From the sequence record PX880103.1: a DNA stretch of 64,000 nt, one strand, 5' to 3'. Each line of letters begins with the position of its first letter. Within the stretch, counting starts at the first letter, position 1. The notes under the pieces are model-generated. The model searched no databases. It worked only from the letters and a program-made list of their open reading frames with translations, and was not told the origin of the DNA. The stretch comes from a phage. Shown here piece after piece: positions 8,179-45,811 of this stretch. The translations under genes were made by a program, and so were the position numbers.

Positions 8179-9861
8179 TTAAACCATTACAGTAAATCGA
8201 CCAACTTTCTTCATTTGAAGATGCTGACCGTATGCTTGCGGGTCATGGTCTCTATGCGAAATAACAAAAACGTTAGTATTTTTTAAACTATCTAAAATAG
8301 TTGAAATAGCTTTTACACCTTCAACGTCGGTCGCTGAATCAAAAACTTCGTCAAGAATTAGCGTGTTTATTTTAACACCTGAAACTTTTTCAGCAATATC
8401 ACGCCAAGTAAATAAAAGAGCAATATCAATTCGTGCTTTTTCACCTTGACTGAATGAAGCATAACTAAAATCTTCACGACCACGGGATTTAATTGTCTCA
8501 TTAAATTCTTCATCTAATGTAAACACATAATCCGCTTCCATTATTTTAAGATAATGGTTAATCTGCTTATTAAATAATGGAATGTACTTTTTAATAATAG
8601 CACCTTTAATACCAGAATCTTTGAGCATATCAGTCAAAATTCCTCGGTGGTATTTTTCCATTACTAAATTAGTTTTTGTCTTAACAATTTTATCAAGTTC
8701 TTCTTGAAGCAGTGCTATTTCATCAGCATGGTCAATAAACTCAGAAGATGCTTTTTCTATAGCCGCTTTAACTTTTTTAGCTTTATCTACCGTCGTGATT
8801 AGAGATTGCTTTTTATTGCGAATATCATTTGCCAACGACTGTTGGGTTTTAATATTATCTCGGTATTCATCAACAAGAACTTTTAAATTATCACGGTGTG
8901 TTGAAAGCTGTTCAAACGAATACGTACATTCAGAAACTTTATCTTTAATTTTGGAAACAACTTTATCACCGGAACTCAATTGCGACAAACAGGTTGGACA
9001 TAATCCACCTTCGTGATACATATTAATGACTTTATTATACGAGTCAATTTTTGATTTAATTAAAACTGCTTCTTGACCGATTTTATTAAATGCATCAGTC
9101 GGGTCTTCATCTAAAACAATATTAACTAATCTTTCATTAGCTTCTTCTATTTCCGATTTTAGCGTTCTAGCTTCTTTTGCCAAATCATCATACATATTTT
9201 GCAGACGAGTAAGGTTGTCACCAGTTAATTTTTTCTGGCGTTCAACATTATCATTATATATTTTAATTTGTTGGATAATACTATCTTTTTTAACATCAAG
9301 CACTTGGTTCTGTGAATTTAATTCACGTATTAGTGCTTTGTTAAGCTTATCCATTTCAGCTAATGTTCCTACCTCAAGCAGGTCTTCCACAAGCTTTCTT
9401 CGCACAGGGGTCGACAAACCCATGAAAGGGGTATACCCTGCTGTACCAAGGACAACAATCTGCTTGAAACTGGCATATGACATTCCGATAAGCTGTTCAA
9501 ATTCTGCTTGGAAATCTTTACTGCTGGCAGATTCATTAAGACGTGTACCGTTAACGGTGATTTCGAAAACGTTTGGTTTTTGTCCTCTTTTGATATAGTA
9601 CTTTTTCTCATCATATTCCATCCACAGTTCAACTAAAAGTTCTTTCTTATTTGTGCTGTTTATTAATTGACCTTTCTTTACATCACGAAATGGCTTGCCA
9701 AAAAGCCCAAATGTGATGGCTTCTAACATAGTAGACTTACCACCGCCATTTCGTCCAGTAATAAGAGTTTTTTGAACCTTATCTAATTGAATGTCAACTC
9801 CATTTTGACCAACTGACATTATATTTTTATATTTTACTCTATTAAGTTTAAATGATTTCAT
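8179..9861 (-). CDS. 46: Recombination endonuclease subunit (Rad50-like SMC ATPase)
   Basis: 560 aa; Walker A GRNGGGKST, zinc-hook CPTC, long coiled coil; T4 gp46 length. Confidence 0.9.
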   Translation of the reverse strand: MKSFKLNRVKYKNIMSVGQNGVDIQLDKVQKTLITGRNGGGKSTMLEAITFGLFGKPFRDVKKGQLINSTNKKELLVELWMEYDEKKYYIKRGQKPNVFEITVNGTRLNESASSKDFQAEFEQLIGMSYASFKQIVVLGTAGYTPFMGLSTPVRRKLVEDLLEVGTLAEMDKLNKALIRELNSQNQVLDVKKDSIIQQIKIYNDNVERQKKLTGDNLTRLQNMYDDLAKEARTLKSEIEEANERLVNIVLDEDPTDAFNKIGQEAVLIKSKIDSYNKVINMYHEGGLCPTCLSQLSSGDKVVSKIKDKVSECTYSFEQLSTHRDNLKVLVDEYRDNIKTQQSLANDIRNKKQSLITTVDKAKKVKAAIEKASSEFIDHADEIALLQEELDKIVKTKTNLVMEKYHRGILTDMLKDSGIKGAIIKKYIPLFNKQINHYLKIMEADYVFTLDEEFNETIKSRGREDFSYASFSQGEKARIDIALLFTWRDIAEKVSGVKINTLILDEVFDSATDVEGVKAISTILDSLKNTNVFVISHRDHDPQAYGQHLQMKKVGRFTVMV

Positions 9862-9876
9862 TTTGTATCCAATTGT

Positions 9877-10731
9877 TCACAATGAAGAAAATTCTTTAAC
9901 TAAAGCCTGTAATGAAGCCTCTATTGGATATCCATTCTTAACTAACATTTTTCTAAACATCACATGTTTAGGACGATTATATGATATCCACAATTCATAC
10001 AATTTATCTTTATTATCCCAATGATAGCCTTTTCGTCGAGACGCTATATGAGCTTTTCTAATCTCCGGATTTTTCCAACTAGCAGCTACTGAATTTGATA
10101 TAGCTATTTTATATTCAGGTTTTGATAAAGCAGCACGAACAGCCTTTTGGTGTTTAATTTTATTTTCTTCGTTATTAAACCATTCCCTTGAAGCCATTGA
10201 AATTTTTTGTTTTGTTTTAAAATTATTTAATCTTTCTTTGTTATCTTTCCTATTTTTTGCTACTGAAAAATATTTTAATGCCCTTTCTCTAGCAGCATTT
10301 CTATTTTGTGGATTTGAATAATACTGTTGAAGCCTTTTTGATATTGTGTCACTTACATCCTGTCTTATAAAACTATATTCAGCAGCTATTAAATCAACTT
10401 CGGCTAAAGATAAATTTTTATATGTTTTTCCTGACATCATTCTATTTAAAGCATTTAGCATTTTTCCATTTTTACCTTTTGCTAATAAGAAATGTGCTTT
10501 GAAATGATTAAAATGACTTAAATTAACTAAATTCCATGTAGATTTTAAATATTCAGGAAATATTGATTTAGGAAGCACGTGGTGTGCTTCCGTTTTACCT
10601 GGAGTTTTAACAGTTGAATTCATAGAAATAAAATTAATGTAAGACTTGGCGTCTTCTTCACTCAACGCTAATTTTTCAACTAATTCCTTTATTAAAAATT
10701 CATCATTAATATCAAGTTTAAAATTCTTCAC
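9877..10731 (-). CDS. Putative HNH homing endonuclease with NUMOD-like C-terminal DNA-binding repeats
   Basis: GTG start with AAGGAA SD; HH...NLVNL...H motif near N-terminus; repeated KxPEIRK-type modules; free-standing ORF between genes 46 and 47. Confidence 0.6.
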   Translation of the reverse strand: MKNFKLDINDEFLIKELVEKLALSEEDAKSYINFISMNSTVKTPGKTEAHHVLPKSIFPEYLKSTWNLVNLSHFNHFKAHFLLAKGKNGKMLNALNRMMSGKTYKNLSLAEVDLIAAEYSFIRQDVSDTISKRLQQYYSNPQNRNAARERALKYFSVAKNRKDNKERLNNFKTKQKISMASREWFNNEENKIKHQKAVRAALSKPEYKIAISNSVAASWKNPEIRKAHIASRRKGYHWDNKDKLYELWISYNRPKHVMFRKMLVKNGYPIEASLQALVKEFSSL

Positions 10732-10934
10732 AAAAGATTCCTTTTAATGTATCTTTTAGACCATTCTATCATATCATCATAATCTAAAAAGTATTCATCA
10801 AATTCAGCCATGCAAACAACGCCTTGTGCTGTTTTTGATGTAATATAAATTATTCCAACATATCTAGAATCTTCTTCGGTATAATCAATGTTTGCTATGA
10901 ATTCATCATTAATGTCAAATGTCGAAAACTTCAC
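10728..10934 (-). CDS. Hypothetical protein
   Basis: Start set at in-frame GTG whose surrounding ~50 nt resemble the HNH gene start; acidic small protein. Confidence 0.35.
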   Translation of the reverse strand: MKFSTFDINDEFIANIDYTEEDSRYVGIIYITSKTAQGVVCMAEFDEYFLDYDDMIEWSKRYIKRNLL

Positions 10935-11178
10935 AGTATGCATCCTTAATACAAGATACAGCCATATCTCGCAATGATTTAGGTGTGTCATTATCTAAAA
11001 TGTTGAAGTTAAAGGATACAGCCCAGTCAGTGCAGACCGTAACTTTTTTAATACAATTATCTTCAACTTCTAGTGGTTCAAACCAGTATTCAATAATTTC
11101 TTTATGACCAATATCATCTTTTACTTCACATTCAAAATGCTGACTCATCATAACATTTTTAAATTCATCAAAAGTCAT
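10915..11178 (-). CDS. Hypothetical protein
   Basis: 87 aa ORF directly downstream of gene 47. Confidence 0.45.
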   Translation of the reverse strand: MTFDEFKNVMMSQHFECEVKDDIGHKEIIEYWFEPLEVEDNCIKKVTVCTDWAVSFNFNILDNDTPKSLRDMAVSCIKDAYCEVFDI

Positions 11179-12194
11179 TGTGTTGCCTCTACATATAACT
11201 GATTTGCATATTGAATAAGTGCTTCACGGTCAGAATCAGTGATGTCTGGAATTGCATTAATGTATTCTTCCATCAATGTCTGAAGCGATTGAACTTCAAC
11301 TTCTTCACTGTCATCTGACTCGACAGAGTTATCAATCTTTGACACAACTCGTAATGAATGCACAACTTTCTCTAGTTCAGATTCGAACTTCGTCAGATTT
11401 TTGTCTACTTCAGTTACTATAACACGTACTGATAGATTTGTAAAATCTTTATAGTCAATTTTTCCTTTAAATGGATAATGAATTCTACGATGCCAAGTAG
11501 TATTGTTTGGAATAAATTCCATTCGTTCTGTTTCTGTATCAAACATCCAGAACCCGCGGGGGTCATTCTCGTCACCTGCAGTTAGTGTCCATGGTGTCCC
11601 AATATATCTGACGTTAGCAGCCTCAGAGATAGTATGGAAGTGACCAGACCACACTTCTTTGTAAGTCTTAAGGAAATCAGGTTCAAGACCGTGAGATTTC
11701 ATTCCTTTATAAAAATAAAATCCATTCAGTTCCCAGTGACCGACACAATAAGAAGCAGATGAAGTTTTGATATGCTCAAGAATTTCACCAGTATTTTCTT
11801 CGCACATCCAAGGAATCAAATCAATCAAACATCCGTCAAAATCTACTGTAGTAGGCTTATCATATACTTTAACATTAGGATATTTAGCCAAAAGCTCAGT
11901 AGAGGCATTTGGAGTTAAAGTATTTTTAAAGTGCATATCATGGTTTCCTACAACAGTATGTAGGGTAATACCAGCATCATCAAGCATTTGAACTATTTCA
12001 CGGGCGAACTCCATAGTTTTATGCGTGATTGCTTTTCGCACATCAAAAATATCGCCGTATTGAATCCAGGTAGTAATTCCATTTTTCTTAGAATATTCTA
12101 TCGCTTGCTTAATTCCATCCAACTGAATGGATTGAACCCACTCGTCATCGGCTTTAACGCCTAAATGCCAATCACCTAAATTTAAAATTTTCAT
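11175..12194 (-). CDS. 47: Recombination endonuclease subunit (Mre11-like phosphoesterase)
   Basis: 339 aa; LGDWHLG metallophosphatase motif; T4 gp47 length. Confidence 0.9.
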   Translation of the reverse strand: MKILNLGDWHLGVKADDEWVQSIQLDGIKQAIEYSKKNGITTWIQYGDIFDVRKAITHKTMEFAREIVQMLDDAGITLHTVVGNHDMHFKNTLTPNASTELLAKYPNVKVYDKPTTVDFDGCLIDLIPWMCEENTGEILEHIKTSSASYCVGHWELNGFYFYKGMKSHGLEPDFLKTYKEVWSGHFHTISEAANVRYIGTPWTLTAGDENDPRGFWMFDTETERMEFIPNNTTWHRRIHYPFKGKIDYKDFTNLSVRVIVTEVDKNLTKFESELEKVVHSLRVVSKIDNSVESDDSEEVEVQSLQTLMEEYINAIPDITDSDREALIQYANQLYVEATQ

Positions 12195-12354: not shown

Positions 12355-12372
12355 AAAGGGCCGAAGCCCTTT
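12355..12372 (-). other. UUCG-tetraloop hairpin at the alpha-gt stop
   Basis: Minus strand AAAGGGCUUCGGCCCUUU. Confidence 0.4.
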
Positions 12373-13573
12373 ATTTTGTAATAATGTCAAACTGTTCTTT
12401 AAAGCAGAAGCTTGAATCTTGATGCTGATACAAAAATTCATATGCTTTTTCTCGCTCACGGTCATAAAGAGCTCGGTCAGATGACAGTTCTTTAATACGT
12501 TCAAATGTTGATTCCATATCATTTTCATCAAACCAAATGATACCGCTATCATGCGAGGTCAAAGGAGTATTATCAACACGGAATTTTAAATTTTCGCCAG
12601 TAGATTTCCAAAATACTGGAATTGTTCCACATGCACCAAGCTCGAGGTGAGTATATTCTAAAGAACGTTGTAGATATTTTTTATCCAACTTACTCAACTG
12701 ATAACCAAATCCGGATTTACTCATGCGTTCAAGCATTTCGCTATTTACATAGCGATCGAGAATTTGCGTTGGCAAATTAGGAGCAATTTTAATTTGGTCT
12801 ACTTGATGAAGACGATAATACTCGTATGGAATTCCTTTTTCTTTAATAGGAATGAACGCTGGAGAACGTTCCAGACCTTCCATAATAGTACTTAGTCCTG
12901 CAGGTTTAAGATGTTTTTCGTGAAAATCAAACATCTGATAAAAACCTTTCCATGTAGTCGTACGACCAATCCAACGGTTGACATTCATGTTAATTTCAGA
13001 AACATCTTTCCAGTAGGTTGACCGAACCTTCGCAATATCCATAGGAGGCTGAAAGTTATATACTGTCGGCGCTTCTTCAATATCATCAAACAAAGAAACT
13101 GTTTCAGGATACCATTCTTTCATCAGAACTTTATTAAAATCACCATTATCAGAATGGCTAAAAATAACATCAGCTCGACGAACAGTTTCTTCTAATCCCA
13201 AATTTCGGCGCAAAGAAAGAGAAGAATGGTCATGCTGATAAACTACAACACGAACAGAAGGTTTAATGTTATCAATAATTTTTTTATAGTTATTAATAGT
13301 GTCTTCTTCAACTGAAGTAGCAGGAACTGAATTGATAATTAGAATATCACAATCATTTACCAGCTTAAGTGTTTTATCGTATTCTTTTGCCAATAAAACC
13401 GGAATTGAAAATGATTTATAATCATGCGCACAGTTACGAGTAAATGATTTATCTTTGGCATAAACCAAAGTTACTTCATGACCATTTTTAATAAACCAAT
13501 CACGTTGCTCAAGAGAAAATTTAGTTACACCACAACCTTCAAGACCTCGAGCCATAAAAATACATACTTTCAT
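12371..13573 (-). CDS. a-gt: DNA alpha-glucosyltransferase
   Basis: 400 aa, matches T4 alpha-gt sequence as remembered. Confidence 0.9.
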   Translation of the reverse strand: MKVCIFMARGLEGCGVTKFSLEQRDWFIKNGHEVTLVYAKDKSFTRNCAHDYKSFSIPVLLAKEYDKTLKLVNDCDILIINSVPATSVEEDTINNYKKIIDNIKPSVRVVVYQHDHSSLSLRRNLGLEETVRRADVIFSHSDNGDFNKVLMKEWYPETVSLFDDIEEAPTVYNFQPPMDIAKVRSTYWKDVSEINMNVNRWIGRTTTWKGFYQMFDFHEKHLKPAGLSTIMEGLERSPAFIPIKEKGIPYEYYRLHQVDQIKIAPNLPTQILDRYVNSEMLERMSKSGFGYQLSKLDKKYLQRSLEYTHLELGACGTIPVFWKSTGENLKFRVDNTPLTSHDSGIIWFDENDMESTFERIKELSSDRALYDREREKAYEFLYQHQDSSFCFKEQFDIITK

Positions 13574-13623
13574 TTAATATCCTCATTGTTTTGGTTTATT
13601 TTACCAAAAATTTATAAAGCAAT

Positions 13624-13643
13624 ATAGGAGCCGAAGCTCCTAT
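13624..13643 (-). other. UUCG-tetraloop hairpin upstream of alpha-gt
   Basis: Minus strand AUAGGAGCUUCGGCUCCUAU. Confidence 0.4.
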
Positions 13644-13816
13644 CCGCATAATACGCCATACAAAGGCTCATTAGAGCTTCTAAATTTTATGCGCTTATAT
13701 GTTATAGTTCCTTCTGCTTTAGCTTTATCATGAGACTCTTTAAAGCGTCTCATCATTTCCTCTTTAGAGGAACGAATTTTATTATAATCTATTTCAGAAG
13801 TCTGGGTGTTCATCTT

Positions 13817-14023
13817 TCATAACTGCCACCATTTTTTAACTTGATAAGAATCAACCCACACTTTCATATTAGGGTCTGCTCTTACAATAGGAGGATTAAC
13901 TTCTTTAATTGAACTATCATGGTATTCTTTTTCAGAAATTTTCACACAAAGATGACCATTCAAAGATTCAGTAAATCCTGCATTAATTTTAAGACGCTTG
14001 AATTTTACGTGTGTAAGCATCAA
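13817..14023 (-). CDS. Hypothetical protein
   Basis: 68 aa ORF between 55 and a-gt. Confidence 0.4.
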   Translation of the reverse strand: MMLTHVKFKRLKINAGFTESLNGHLCVKISEKEYHDSSIKEVNPPIVRADPNMKVWVDSYQVKKWWQL

Positions 14024-14306
14024 TCATATCCTCAATCTGCGATCTAGTAGTCTTCCAAAGAATACTGATGAGTTCATCGTTATATGGCTGTTTTAGAATA
14101 TCCCGACTTTTCTTGATAGCATATTCGTATTGAGCAAAATTATTGTTTTCAGCTGCAATCTGAGCGTGCTTATAAAGACGGTTCAGTTCGCGTTTGTTTT
14201 TAGATAATAACTTATTTGCTTTTCTTTCTGCTTCAAGACGGTTCTTTTCTTCAATAGAAGAAATAAGCTTTTCCACTTCATCATTAATTTCGGGTTTATC
14301 AGTCAT
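13989..14306 (-). CDS. Hypothetical protein
   Basis: 105 aa ORF, charged and helical. Confidence 0.45.
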   Translation of the reverse strand: MTDKPEINDEVEKLISSIEEKNRLEAERKANKLLSKNKRELNRLYKHAQIAAENNNFAQYEYAIKKSRDILKQPYNDELISILWKTTRSQIEDMIDAYTRKIQAS

Positions 14307-14307
14307 A

Positions 14308-14526
14308 TTATTTCTCTAATATAAAATAAAAATCATCATCTGTTAAATGATACCGATAGTTTAATTCTACACCATTAGATTTAAAAGCGGTATCATACGG
14401 ATTTTCTGGATCAATATCAATGTCAAGAGCTAAAACTTCCCTGAGATACATTTTAAGTAAATAGGGAATAGCTTCAACTTCAGGTATTTCTTCCAAGAAT
14501 CCGGAGAGGTTAATCGTTAGCCTCAT
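14308..14526 (-). CDS. Hypothetical protein
   Basis: 72 aa ORF immediately downstream of gene 55. Confidence 0.45.
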
Positions 14527-15073
14527 ATAAAAAATCCAAACTAGGAGAATCGTCTACAACACTTTTCTTTTCAGCCCCCGGTGTTCTATAGGTTGATTCT
14601 TCGTAATGCGTCATTTTATCGTAGATGTCTTGAATAAAAGTTTCATCTACTAACGCAACCATATCGTCGTCACGGCTGTCATAGACATTGTGAACGAAGT
14701 AACTATATTTCTTTGCAACTTCCTTACGTTCTTTTTTAATACGTTGGACGAATGCATTAAAACAAGCTTGAGTTATATACGCATGTGGGTTTTTATATTT
14801 CGTTTCATCAAAATTGTGAAGCCCCTTAATAGAAGCTTCTATACCATCTGCAATCATTTCTTGTTTCCAAGACTGGGTGTATCCTGAAAAGTTGAAACGT
14901 TTAGATAAGCCTTCTGCAATAAGCATAATGGCTAATCCGATAGTATCATTCTGACGAACTACTTTATTTGGGTCTTTATTATTTGCTAATTCTGTTTTCC
15001 AATCAATAATAGCTTGTAAAAGCTCTTTATTGTTTACGTAATTATATTTAGGCTTAGTTTCTGACATTTTCAC
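14510..15073 (-). CDS. 55: Late-transcription sigma factor
   Basis: 187 aa, matches T4 gp55 size and sequence as remembered. Confidence 0.9.
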
Positions 15074-44601: not shown

Positions 44602-44677
44602 TGGTCGAGGCAGTAGGGATCGAACCTACGACCTAGGACTTAGAAGGTCCTTGCTCTTCCTTCTGAGCTATGCCTCG
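44602..44677 (-). tRNA. tRNA-Arg (anticodon UCU)
   Basis: Hand fold: 7 bp acceptor CGAGGCA/UGCCUCG, anticodon loop CUUCUAA, T-loop UUCGAUC, encoded CCA; 76 nt. Confidence 0.85.
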
Positions 44678-44681
44678 GATT

Positions 44682-44756
44682 TGGCGGACGTGATAGGATT
44701 CGAACCTATAACCAATCGCTTAACAGGCGATCGCTCTGCCATTGAGCTACACATCC
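44682..44756 (-). tRNA. tRNA-Asn (anticodon GUU)
   Basis: Hand fold: acceptor GGAUGUG/CACGUCC, anticodon stem AUCGC/GCGAU with loop CUGUUAA, T-loop UUCGAAU, encoded CCA; 75 nt. Confidence 0.75.
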
Positions 44757-44760
44757 AAAT

Positions 44761-44847
44761 TGGTGGGGAGTGATGGAGTCGAACCACCCGAGTCGCAATG
44801 ACAATGGATTTACAGTCCACACCGCTACCTCTACGGGATAACTCCCC
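44761..44847 (-). tRNA. tRNA-Tyr (anticodon GUA), class II with long variable arm
   Basis: Acceptor GGGGAGU/ACUCCCC, anticodon loop CUGUAAA, variable arm resembles bacterial tRNA-Tyr, encoded CCA; 87 nt. Confidence 0.75.
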
Positions 44848-44856
44848 AAATTAATT

Positions 44857-44931
44857 TGGTGGCCCTGGGTGGAATTGAACCACCATCTGGCGATTATGAG
44901 TCGCTTGCTTGAACCTTCCAGCTACAGGGCC
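44857..44931 (-). tRNA. tRNA with anticodon CAU (Met, or Ile if lysidine-modified)
   Basis: Acceptor GGCCCUG/CAGGGCC, anticodon loop CUCAUAA, T-loop UUCAAUU, encoded CCA; 75 nt. Confidence 0.8.
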
Positions 44932-44939
44932 AAATTTTC

Positions 44940-45425
44940 TTATTTTATGTAATATTTATTTAAAAACTTTCTAGCTTGAGTATGGCTAACATTTATAGCG
45001 TTTGCATAATTTTTAATAAAACCTCGTTCATCCATATTAAAATTTTCTAATATTTTTAATCGTCTAGTTATCTCATCTTGACTTAAGGTACTTGCATTAT
45101 TTTTAGAAATTTTTTCTAAGGACTGTGCCGAGTGTTTTCGACCATTAAAATTAAAATTTTTAGATTTTGGAGGAAATCTAGCATTTAATCTCGCATCTTT
45201 TGTATTTTGATTATTAGTTGCGCAATATATGTTATTTAATGAATATGGTCCTTTATCGCCGAAACGGCACATGCAGTATTCATGACCCTTTCTTCCACGC
45301 TTATCATAATTTCCCGTTGATTTCCACCAATGCAACCATTCATCAAAAGTTAAATTCCATTCAATGTTTCTACGTATAGCAGAATTCCGCTGAGAAATAT
45401 ATTTTGCATAATCTTCTTTCATCAC
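44940..45425 (-). CDS. Putative HNH-family homing endonuclease-like protein embedded in the tRNA cluster
   Basis: 161 aa; GHEYCMCRFGDKGPYSLNNIYCATNNQN cysteine/Asn-rich nuclease-like core plus C-terminal helix-turn-helix-like tail; free-standing between tRNA sub-clusters. Confidence 0.45.
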   Translation of the reverse strand: MMKEDYAKYISQRNSAIRRNIEWNLTFDEWLHWWKSTGNYDKRGRKGHEYCMCRFGDKGPYSLNNIYCATNNQNTKDARLNARFPPKSKNFNFNGRKHSAQSLEKISKNNASTLSQDEITRRLKILENFNMDERGFIKNYANAINVSHTQARKFLNKYYIK

Positions 45426-45469
45426 AAATTTCTCTACTTATTCAATACACTGAGCTAAATCAGCAAAAC

Positions 45470-45559
45470 TGGCGGAGGCGATAGGATTTGAACCTATGAG
45501 TCGCCGGAGCGACTGCCGGTTTTCAAGACCGGTGCATTAAACCACTCTGCCACGCCTCC
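45470..45559 (-). tRNA. tRNA-Ser (anticodon UGA), class II
   Basis: Acceptor GGAGGCG/CGCCUCC, anticodon stem CCGGU/ACCGG with loop CUUGAAA, long variable arm, encoded CCA; 90 nt. Confidence 0.85.
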
Positions 45560-45561
45560 AG

Positions 45562-45635
45562 TCTCCGTGGCAGGATTTGAACCTACGACATTCTGCTCCC
45601 AAAGCAGACGCTCTACCAAACTGAGCTACACGGAG
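45562..45635 (-). tRNA. tRNA-Pro (anticodon UGG), CCA not encoded
   Basis: Acceptor CUCCGUG/CACGGAG, anticodon stem UCUGC/GCAGA with loop UUUGGGA, T-loop UUCAAAU; 74 nt. Confidence 0.8.
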
Positions 45636-45645
45636 TAAATTAAAT

Positions 45646-45719
<74 letters not shown>

Positions 45720-45724
45720 AAATT

Positions 45725-45811
45725 TGGTGCGAGAAGTGGGACTCGAACCCACAAGGAAATCATTCCGCAGCATTTTAAGTGCTGTGCCTTTACCAATTTG
45801 ACCATTCTCGC
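45725..45811 (-). tRNA. tRNA-Leu (anticodon UAA), class II
   Basis: Sequence GCGAGAAUGGUCAAAUUGGUAAAGGCACAGCACUUAAAAUGCUG...CACUUCUCGCACCA; matches T4 tRNA-Leu as remembered; 87 nt. Confidence 0.85.

Follow-up and report, generated by a model that had tools for sequence, protein, structure and literature searches.

In the 64-kb phage DNA stretch PX880103.1 (hereafter the window; all features described below lie on its minus strand), we identified with high confidence a free-standing Mob-type (HNH) homing endonuclease gene (HEG) at positions 9877..10731. This open reading frame (ORF), here called ORF X, encodes 284 amino acids from a GTG start to a TGA stop and was recognized from the list of ORFs, PHROG matches, and mobD homology. 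Downstream of it is gene 46 (8179..9861), which encodes a 560-amino-acid Rad50/SbcC-like recombination nuclease subunit with the start MKSFKL. Gene 46 is the essential phage Rad50 homolog, required for processing the breaks on which homing depends. An earlier examination of the letters alone, without database searches (the sequence-only reading), had described a 284-amino-acid ORF between the two recombination nuclease genes. Its coordinates and GTG start were correct, but comparison with phage T4, which lacks ORF X, placed the insert inside gene 46, between codons 6 and 7, rather than in intergenic DNA. The distinctive point is the architecture of the junction: the HEG lies within the coding start of its host gene, the native initiation region has been captured, and a recoded start is supplied. 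The element is of a well-known rather than a new kind, and the example it gives is instructive: in nature, a selfish nuclease gene clearly sits within the start of an essential recombination gene and leaves that gene undisrupted. Taken as a whole, we consider it likely that a Mob-type HEG captured the gene 46 start, reached its present position in two steps, and homes on gene 46 with an associated immunity patch.

Boundaries of the insert and origin of the two start regions

In T4, the junction of genes 46.1 and 46 reads AAAAGGAATCTTTT GTG AAG AAT TTT AAA CTT, followed directly by AAT AGA GTA. Where T4 has AAAAGGAATCTTTTGTGAAGAATTTTAAACTT followed by AATAGAG, the window carries the same 32 nucleotides (nt; positions 10745-10714) followed by GATATTAATGAT, diverging into GAT ATT AAT GAT GAA TTT. 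Homology to T4 returns at TTTAAACTT AAT AGA GTA (from 9852), after ACAATTGGATACAAA ATG AAA TCA. Comparison with T-even genomes lacking the ORF, which had been proposed in the sequence-only reading as a way to define the boundaries, did so with T4: relative to that phage, the window has an 870-bp insert at 9844..10713, equivalent to 290 codons and in frame with gene 46. The insert contains the 46.1-derived codons discussed below, the endonuclease body, a stop, a 15-nt spacer, and a replacement gene 46 start. At either end of it stands one copy of an exact 9-nt direct repeat, TTTAAACTT (10714-10722 and 9844-9852), which is part of an 18-nt imperfect repeat (13/18).

The stretch upstream of the divergence point (10714..10745) is identical to the T4 46.1/46 junction and includes the Shine-Dalgarno sequence AAGGA; T4 record M10160 annotates "g46 (gtg start codon)" here. 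Because these 32 nt are those of the T4 gene 46 start, the Shine-Dalgarno sequence, the GTG, and the MKNFKL codons of the HEG are gene 46's own. On this identity we conclude with high confidence that the HEG is predicted to initiate from the original ribosome-binding site, GTG, and six codons of gene 46; in annotation terms, the first six codons of the "homing endonuclease" belong to gene 46. The GTG also overlaps the stop of 46.1 (GTGA), so the HEG is probably translationally coupled to 46.1.

Gene 46 itself now begins from a different initiation region (9853..9876), recognized by comparison with Mosigvirus JS09 and composed of the spacer ACAATTGGATACAAA, with a weak GGA Shine-Dalgarno sequence, and ATG AAA TCA. 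The resulting start, ATGAAATCA (MKSFKL), is identical to the native gene 46 start of JS09. A new ATG and three recoded codons restore full-length gene 46 870 bp downstream, and this replacement junction was seen only in endonuclease-carrying Tequatrovirus records. By this comparison, the present start of gene 46 is evidently a foreign-type copy, of the Mosigvirus type. The similarity of MKNFKL to MKSFKL, correctly pointed out in the sequence-only reading, proved to be the most informative feature of the locus, and the arrangement accounts for the MKSFKL versus MKNFKL gene 46 starts and for the two alleles of the first 100 nt in T-even phages. That reading had also taken ORF X for a mobile endonuclease inserted by recombination that copied neighboring initiation sequences. 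Sporadic distribution, clean boundaries, independently decayed copies, and a start built from neighboring initiation sequences are all in agreement; however, the first 32 nt are the gene 46 original and not a copy.

A fragment of gene 46.1 in the endonuclease leader

Gene 46.1 (10728..10934; 68 amino acids, GTG start) is a DUF5487 gene by Pfam (E 4.5e-50). Its codons 7 to 12, GACATTAATGATGAATTC (10899-10916), are the apparent source of HEG codons 7 to 12, GATATTAATGATGAATTT (10696..10713), which likewise encode DINDEF. The 14 identical nt reported earlier for the two ORFs were confirmed: the window holds exactly two copies of the 14-mer AATTCATCATTAAT, at 10697-10710 and 10900-10913, and each encodes DINDEF at codons 7 to 12, counted in 46.1 from the GTG at 10934. 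With at most one mismatch allowed, there were 3 matches versus 0.31 expected, and none of 100 shuffles reached 3. The HEG and 46.1 initiation regions, aligned without gaps on their start codons, were identical at 40 of 65 nt. Against a null of 5253 start-anchored ORF pairs from the window, also compared ungapped over 65 nt (mean, 21.0; standard deviation [SD], 4.1), this score lies 4.6 SD above the mean, and a score of 40 is reached by just 2 pairs, which both look like genuine repeats. Natural alleles lengthen the exact run to 19 to 20 nt, since endonuclease codon 7 is GAC in T6, RB68, and G2133, matching 46.1, and the natural 46.1 allele of Ac3 ends the DINDEF block in TTT, like the endonuclease.

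DINDEF was found in all Tequatrovirus 46.1 genes examined except that of IMG/VR locus L013, which has one substitution (DTNDEF), and T4 and the remaining endonuclease-free genomes examined, L013 again excepted, had an identical sequence at 46.1 codons 7 to 12. Outside this lineage, DINDEF was found in 0 of 150 family representatives. A homologous (D/H)EF occurs at the same place in the 46.1 protein of Mosigvirus (EIHRHEF) and in that of Gelderlandvirus (KLHEF). Past codon 12, homology between the HEG N terminus and gp46.1 was not significant (E 0.49). These comparisons indicate that HEG codons 7 to 12 are a piece of gene 46.1, a fragment that would record an earlier position of the HEG. The similarity of the HEG start to that of the upstream ORF stood at 40/65 nt, but only the DINDEF codons come from 46.1: a generic AAGGA-N7-8-GTGAAG context is common to the three starts, and in T4 those of 46.1 and 46 already resemble one another, so the shared context from Shine-Dalgarno sequence to GTG is partly preexisting.

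Two other placements of the motif were considered. DINDEF as an endonuclease-family motif was rejected, as typical relatives start near "LIKELVEKL". Derivation of the 46.1 N terminus from the endonuclease was likewise rejected, given that (H/D)EF is present in Mosigvirus and Gelderlandvirus 46.1 and not in endonuclease relatives.

An AT-rich genome, and a generic context that recurs at all three starts and at T4 46.1 and 46, could in principle produce similar starts by chance, or by convergence from AT-richness and initiation requirements, with no copying. Such an origin does not fit a 14-mer confined to two places in 64 kb, a start similarity 4.6 SD above the null, the longer exact runs in other alleles, first 32 nt that are base for base the T4 gene 46 initiation region, or a second genus with the same kind of capture (22/22 nt; see below). 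It is therefore extremely improbable and is already refuted as far as statistics and comparison allow. The sequence-only reading had named as observations against itself vertical inheritance of the ORF in all T-even phages with no boundary signature, and similarity no greater than chance; we found that the ORF is not in all T-even phages, that a boundary signature is present, and that the similarity is above chance.

Sister endonucleases and a possible two-step origin

The closest relatives of the HEG are in Mosigvirus (PNJ-9 and F2) and Gelderlandvirus (Melville), at the 47/46 locus, with 42 to 43% protein identity over the full length. In PNJ-9 and F2, the initial 22 nt of Mosigvirus 46.1 form the beginning of the HEG, which takes the place of the remainder of that gene; these nucleotides are identical (22/22) between the F2 HEG and JS09 46.1, both encoding MTKTDYE. 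The Melville HEG replaces 46.1 and retains none of it. In both genera, the 3' end of the sister HEG overlaps the gene 46 start by 14 nt. The Tequatrovirus HEG and its sisters share the 47/46 locus, a sporadic distribution, and substitutions in gene 46 codons 12 to 22. In contrast to the sisters, the Tequatrovirus version leaves 46.1 intact and takes over the start of gene 46 instead.

In Gelderlandvirus STML-198 (L016, 885-900), compared with S16 (L015, 885-1095), 46.1 is precisely deleted. The deletion joins GTGAAA of the 46.1 start to the gene 46 start (ATGAAA) and so couples gene 46 directly to the stop of gene 47; it demonstrates that start-to-start recombination does occur at this locus. 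Together with the 46.1-derived start of the Mosigvirus HEGs and the origin of DINDEF, it supports a two-step origin. In the first step, the HEG would have been fused to 46.1, as 46.1(codons 1-12)::HEG, and would have taken that gene's slot, where the Mosigvirus sister still sits. In the second step, unequal crossover between the 46.1 start of the fusion (GTGAAG..TTT/GAC) and the gene 46 start (GTGAAG..CTT/AAT) of an HEG-free genome would have restored an intact 46.1 upstream and yielded the chimeric leader MKNFKL plus DINDEF. Because the intermediate was not found, this history of the Tequatrovirus arrangement is one that we infer from sequence comparison, with moderate confidence. So read, the case shows initiation regions serving as recombination substrates.

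The clean boundaries would also be compatible with a one-step, intron-like insertion. Here the cut would fall at codon 6/7 of a T4-type gene 46 allele, the 18-nt duplication would be a by-product of repair, and insertion itself would give immunity; the T4-type allele would be ancestral and sensitive, and DINDEF either incidental or a later conversion from 46.1. The coding sequence is indeed interrupted precisely and in frame (870 bp), carrier flanks match T4 from gene 46 nt 10 onward (36/36 and 53/55), and both halves of the native site are kept on either side of the insert. However, a single insertion leaves the in-register 46.1-derived codons and the Mosigvirus-type replacement start unexplained, and the sister HEGs sit in the 46.1 slot of two genera without splitting gene 46, yet with the same codon 12 to 22 substitutions. 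We regard the one-step route as unlikely and favor the two-step history.

Distribution and decay of the endonuclease gene

The HEG was present in 72 of ∼519 Tequatrovirus records and absent from T4. Its sisters were carried by 10 of ∼155 Mosigvirus records and 5 of 16 Gelderlandvirus records, and in all three genera the HEG was always at the 47/46 locus. Carriers and noncarriers of the same genus were 98 to 100% identical in gene 46 past ∼nt 100 and in 46.1/47 upstream. The HEGs of F2 and PNJ-9 are 99.8% identical, whereas gene 47 of the same phages is 87% identical. Among the HEG copies examined in detail, nucleotide identity was 98.4 to 99.3%, and catalytic residues were intact in the full-length ones. 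The gene is intact in the window and in T6, and three independent inactivating lesions were observed elsewhere: a 2-nt deletion in T2 (codons 203/204), a 1-nt deletion in RB68 (codon 175), and a 7-nt insertion in G2133 (codon 90). In T2 (L002, NC_054931.1, 2170-3022), the HEG is split into ORFs of 204 and 85 amino acids, and the 2-nt deletion, within an A-run, marks this copy as a pseudogene. Presence or absence at a fixed locus, together with horizontal spread and decay, is the pattern of a free-standing HEG.

Decay is also what a domesticated or decaying, immobile resident would show. Patchiness would then reflect repeated loss, the protein would have another role or none, and the substitution patch in gene 46 (described below) would be ordinary recombinational mosaicism. 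Several copies are frameshifted, including that of T2, the naive gene 46 allele stands at 70%, and no Pfam nuclease domain was detected in the ORF X protein. Against immobility, the copies are closely alike and the full-length forms keep their catalytic residues, the F2 and PNJ-9 endonucleases are 99.8% identical on 87%-identical flanks, and the same patch is linked to the HEG in three genera. We judge an immobile resident quite improbable and treat the HEG as a mobile element.

Two records of this set deserve separate mention. F2 (L022, MN864145.1) is classed as a Tequatrovirus; its 47-46 region is 96 to 99% identical to JS09 and ∼75% identical to T4, and either the genome is mosaic or its classification is questionable. 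In the Ac3 record (L006, OK040907.1, 1183-2130, corresponding to window 10731-9780), the DNA from the HEG start into gene 46 appears in rewritten form. Nearly all codons are synonymous and E. coli preferred (CTG, CGT, AGC, etc.), and the protein is preserved at a nucleotide identity of 71%. GTG at the start has become GTT, one stretch resembles a back-translated frameshifted reading, and the upstream flank is ordinary phage DNA. The rewritten part looks like synthetic sequence, or an assembly or annotation artifact, and not natural divergence.

A substitution patch in gene 46 as candidate target and immunity site

In the three genera, HEG-linked and naive gene 46 alleles differ in the first 65 to 100 nt, with a shared core at codons 12 to 22 (KNIMSVGQNGV; 9796..9828). 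The comparison used the HEG-linked alleles of the window, T4, PNJ-9, and Melville and the naive alleles of L008, JS09, S16, and STML-198. Fixed differences were found at codon 12 position 1, codon 17 position 3, and codon 19 (CAA versus GGN). As is characteristic of free-standing HEGs, the linked differences thus lie in a nearby conserved gene, where they mark a candidate target or immunity site. Among Tequatrovirus records, 362 carried the naive, RB32-type allele, ∼72 the T4-type allele (patch without HEG), and 72 both patch and HEG. HEG-free Tequatroviruses accordingly have two sharply different gene 46 alleles over nt 18 to 100, NRVRYQNIMSVGGNP versus NRVKYKNIMSVGQNG (L008-L010 and L012 versus T4, L003). 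The rest of gene 46 is ∼99% identical between the two, and the majority allele resembles those of the other genera.

By analogy with MobE (see below), these alleles suggest how the HEG could spread. In a mixed infection, the enzyme would nick or cut the naive gene 46 allele (YQNIMSVGG(N/S)P) within the first ∼65 nt, most likely in codons 12 to 22, and repair from the HEG genome would copy the cassette along with a short resistant patch (Y(K/S)NIMSVGQ type). T4-type phages would have arisen when the HEG was lost between the 18-nt repeats, or through short conversion tracts, and immunity is predicted for them. Codons 12 to 22 are probably the target site in naive alleles and the immunity site in carrier alleles, a reading in which our confidence is moderate. 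If it is true, nicking or cutting is predicted at gene 46 codons 12 to 22 in RB32-type phages, with immunity in T4-type phages, and the T6 46-47 region should be inherited preferentially in crosses.

Several points weigh against the explanation as a whole. Nuclease activity, cleavage site, and super-Mendelian inheritance are all predictions from sequence. The HEGs of the three genera are 42 to 43% identical in protein, yet the patch is identical at 33 of 36 nt between Melville and T4, a pattern more easily reconciled with selection, or with a separate recent exchange, than with simple cotransfer. The target could span the insertion point, in which case the patch would be a mere coconversion tract. 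The naive allele is still in the majority (70%), so the HEG may spread poorly or the naive allele may not be cut efficiently. Finally, no Tequatrovirus 46.1::HEG lacking an intact 46.1 was found among the 72 carrier records, which, searched with a query including 46.1, all matched over 80% or more of its length. In IMG/VR, a pattern search gave no match to the 46.1::HEG fusion junction, and in JGI metagenomes the endonuclease 5' end retrieved no copy whatsoever of the HEG. Looking up contigs that encode exactly the HEG protein returned a single context, and the IMG/VR look-up by gp46.1 returned 7 loci, all endonuclease free.

More broadly, and only tentatively, start capture with a recoded start may be a general route by which HEGs enter coding sequences without an intron or intein. 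On this broader reading, which we hold to be somewhat doubtful, the lineage would have passed between three or more Tevenvirinae genera together with an immunity patch of ∼33 nt in gene 46, T4 would bear the scar of an earlier HEG (the patch alone) and so be immune, and ∼70% of sequenced Tequatroviruses would be naive targets.

Relationship of the ORF X protein to the Mob endonucleases

ORF X matched PHROG 655 ("homing endonuclease"; E 3.5e-45) and PHROG 12434 ("HNH endonuclease"). In tblastn searches, it was 30.5% identical to T4 mobD over 83% of the query (E 6e-12) and 27.8% identical to the annotated mobE of VR5 (E 6e-8), and a 165-nt block of the gene was 74.8% identical to PST "mobC". Membership in the T4 Mob family was thus established through homology to named Mob proteins, a family classed as HNH (PMC2988022). 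An exhaustive HMMER search recovered 990 relatives. The HNH-like motif previously read from the sequence, HHVLPKS...NLVNLSHFNHFKAH, is present at residues 50 to 80 (10584-10492). In family alignments, this presumed catalytic His-Asn-His motif (HHVLPKSIFPEYLKSTWNLVNLSHFNHFKAH; 10492..10584) has H50, H51, H76, and H80 invariant in both sets (52 and 61 members) and N67 invariant in one set and at least 90% conserved in the other. An AlphaFold model had a predicted local distance difference test (pLDDT) score of 79.5 overall and >90 over residues 10 to 150. In the model, strand 47-51 bears H50 and H51, strand 68-72 follows, and helix 73-84 bears H76 and H80, all with pLDDT of >90; this predicted strand-strand-helix layout is that expected of a beta-beta-alpha-metal site. 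The nuclease activity and the cleavage site remain predicted properties of ORF X.

The Pfam link to HNH comes via relatives. No Pfam HNH match was obtained for the ORF X protein at E values up to 1, whereas among 52 relatives 3 matched PF01844, 2 HNH_4, and 2 HNH_5. The sole Pfam match of the protein itself, a subthreshold putAbiC, was discarded. NUMOD-like C-terminal modules had also been proposed. Self-alignment showed three weak helical repeats (IS-x6-[YW][YFW]-x-N-[PE]-x-x-[RK]; 10051..10344), presumed to bind DNA and similar to a degenerate NUMOD3, and these were marginal, with 12 and 25 of 500 shuffles attaining the observed score. Of the relatives, 16 of 52 match NUMOD3 and 4 the I-HmuI NUMOD-like domain, but the ORF X protein has no match to Pfam NUMOD3 (PF07460). 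A family-profile search of PDB sequences found no relevant relative.

Pfam detected no intein domain in the protein, and no Rfam intron or other RNA family was found in 9600-11300, even at E values up to 1. ORF X ends in a stop followed by the separate ATG of gene 46, an arrangement that is neither that of a group I intron nor that of an intein. RefSeq records of T2, T6, and others already annotate the gene as "homing endonuclease"; in the literature searched, we found no description of an endonuclease at the 46/47 locus.

Expression signals and comparison with known systems

The 5' coding part of the HEG contains a stable hairpin, GGAAGCAC-ACCAC-GUGCUUCC (10571..10591), in the sense transcript over the E-A-H-H-V-L-P codons. 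Its free energy is −15.6 kcal/mol (z, −4.47), none of 200 shuffles was equally stable, and there is no clear U-tract. The hairpin is kept in the PST mobC paralog (L020, within 380-580), with a change confined to the loop, and was absent from the Mosigvirus and Gelderlandvirus orthologs. It lies within a block of ∼49 nt that is nearly identical in these two paralogous endonuclease genes at different loci, whose proteins are ∼35% identical; the block suggests gene conversion between paralogs, or selection on nucleic acid structure. The hairpin also scores as a terminator-like site on the opposite strand. At the HEG and gene 46 initiation regions, folding showed no RNA structure beyond that of shuffles (z, +0.40, +0.54, and −0.29). 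A scan for sigma-70-like promoters gave no enrichment (10 matches versus 9.9 in shuffles), and the HEG has the same orientation as its neighbors.

MobE of T4 is a free-standing HNH HEG between nrdA and nrdB, promoterless and with an internal terminator (Wilson & Edgell 2009, PMC2790892). It nicks nt 122 to 126 of the downstream nrdB, in a polymorphic region that distinguishes carriers from noncarriers, and both nicking and homing were shown experimentally (PMC2790892). Like MobE, the window HEG belongs to the Mob family, shows no sigma-70-like promoter signal above background, and is in host orientation; its start overlaps the upstream stop, a stable hairpin lies in its 5' coding part, and the conserved gene directly downstream of it has a 5' region in which carriers and noncarriers differ. 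By analogy, the hairpin may possibly attenuate the transcript as the mobE internal terminator does. Unlike MobE, which is intergenic with its own ATG and is known from experiments, the window HEG is fused to the ribosome-binding site and six codons of the downstream gene, supplies a new start, has a hairpin lacking a clear U-tract, and is known from its sequence. The closest named T4 paralog is MobD, at the nrdC.11/mobD.1 locus, which is a different locus with only distant similarity; MobD target and activity are listed as unknown (Table 1 of PMC2988022). GenBank labels the Melville and F2 orthologs "MobD-like".

Phage genes can also be split by HEGs without an intron or intein. Friedrich et al. 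in 2007 (cited in PMC2988022) reportedly described mobE in nrdA of Aeromonas phage Aeh1 as splitting a phage gene in this way, and mobA with T4 genes 39/60 is likewise an HEG-split phage gene. In these systems, the host protein is made as two polypeptides or via ribosomal bypass. Like them, the window HEG lies inside a formerly single coding sequence, and the host gene is functional via new translation signals. In contrast to them, only six codons lie upstream, and these are duplicated and recoded, so that gene 46 encodes one full-length protein.

Genomic context

Positions 9600 to 11400 of the window were 99.2% identical to phage T2, and the window is a T2-like Tequatrovirus. Its minus-strand gene order is that of T-even phages: 47 (12194-11175), 46.2 (11178-10915), 46.1, ORF X, 46, 45.2, rpbA, 45, and 44. 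By tblastn, no paralog of the 284-amino-acid endonuclease was found within the 64-kb window. A counterpart of T4 mobB, which lies beyond a-gt in T4 (window 12371-15073), was not found anywhere in the window. Eight tRNA genes lie on the minus strand at 44605-45811, in two blocks separated by a gap of ∼540 bp (44931-45473); the T4 region corresponding to this gap contains small RNAs and segB. The start-anchored comparison of ORF pairs also brought out two other similarities within the window. One pair shares 47 of 65 nt, including GTTGTTTACAAG...TGGTACTATACAACTATCAACT, and resembles repeated phage early-promoter regions. The second pair shares 45 of 65 nt, encodes MKTYKEFIAEA and MKTYQEFITEA, and resembles paralogous N-terminal leaders.

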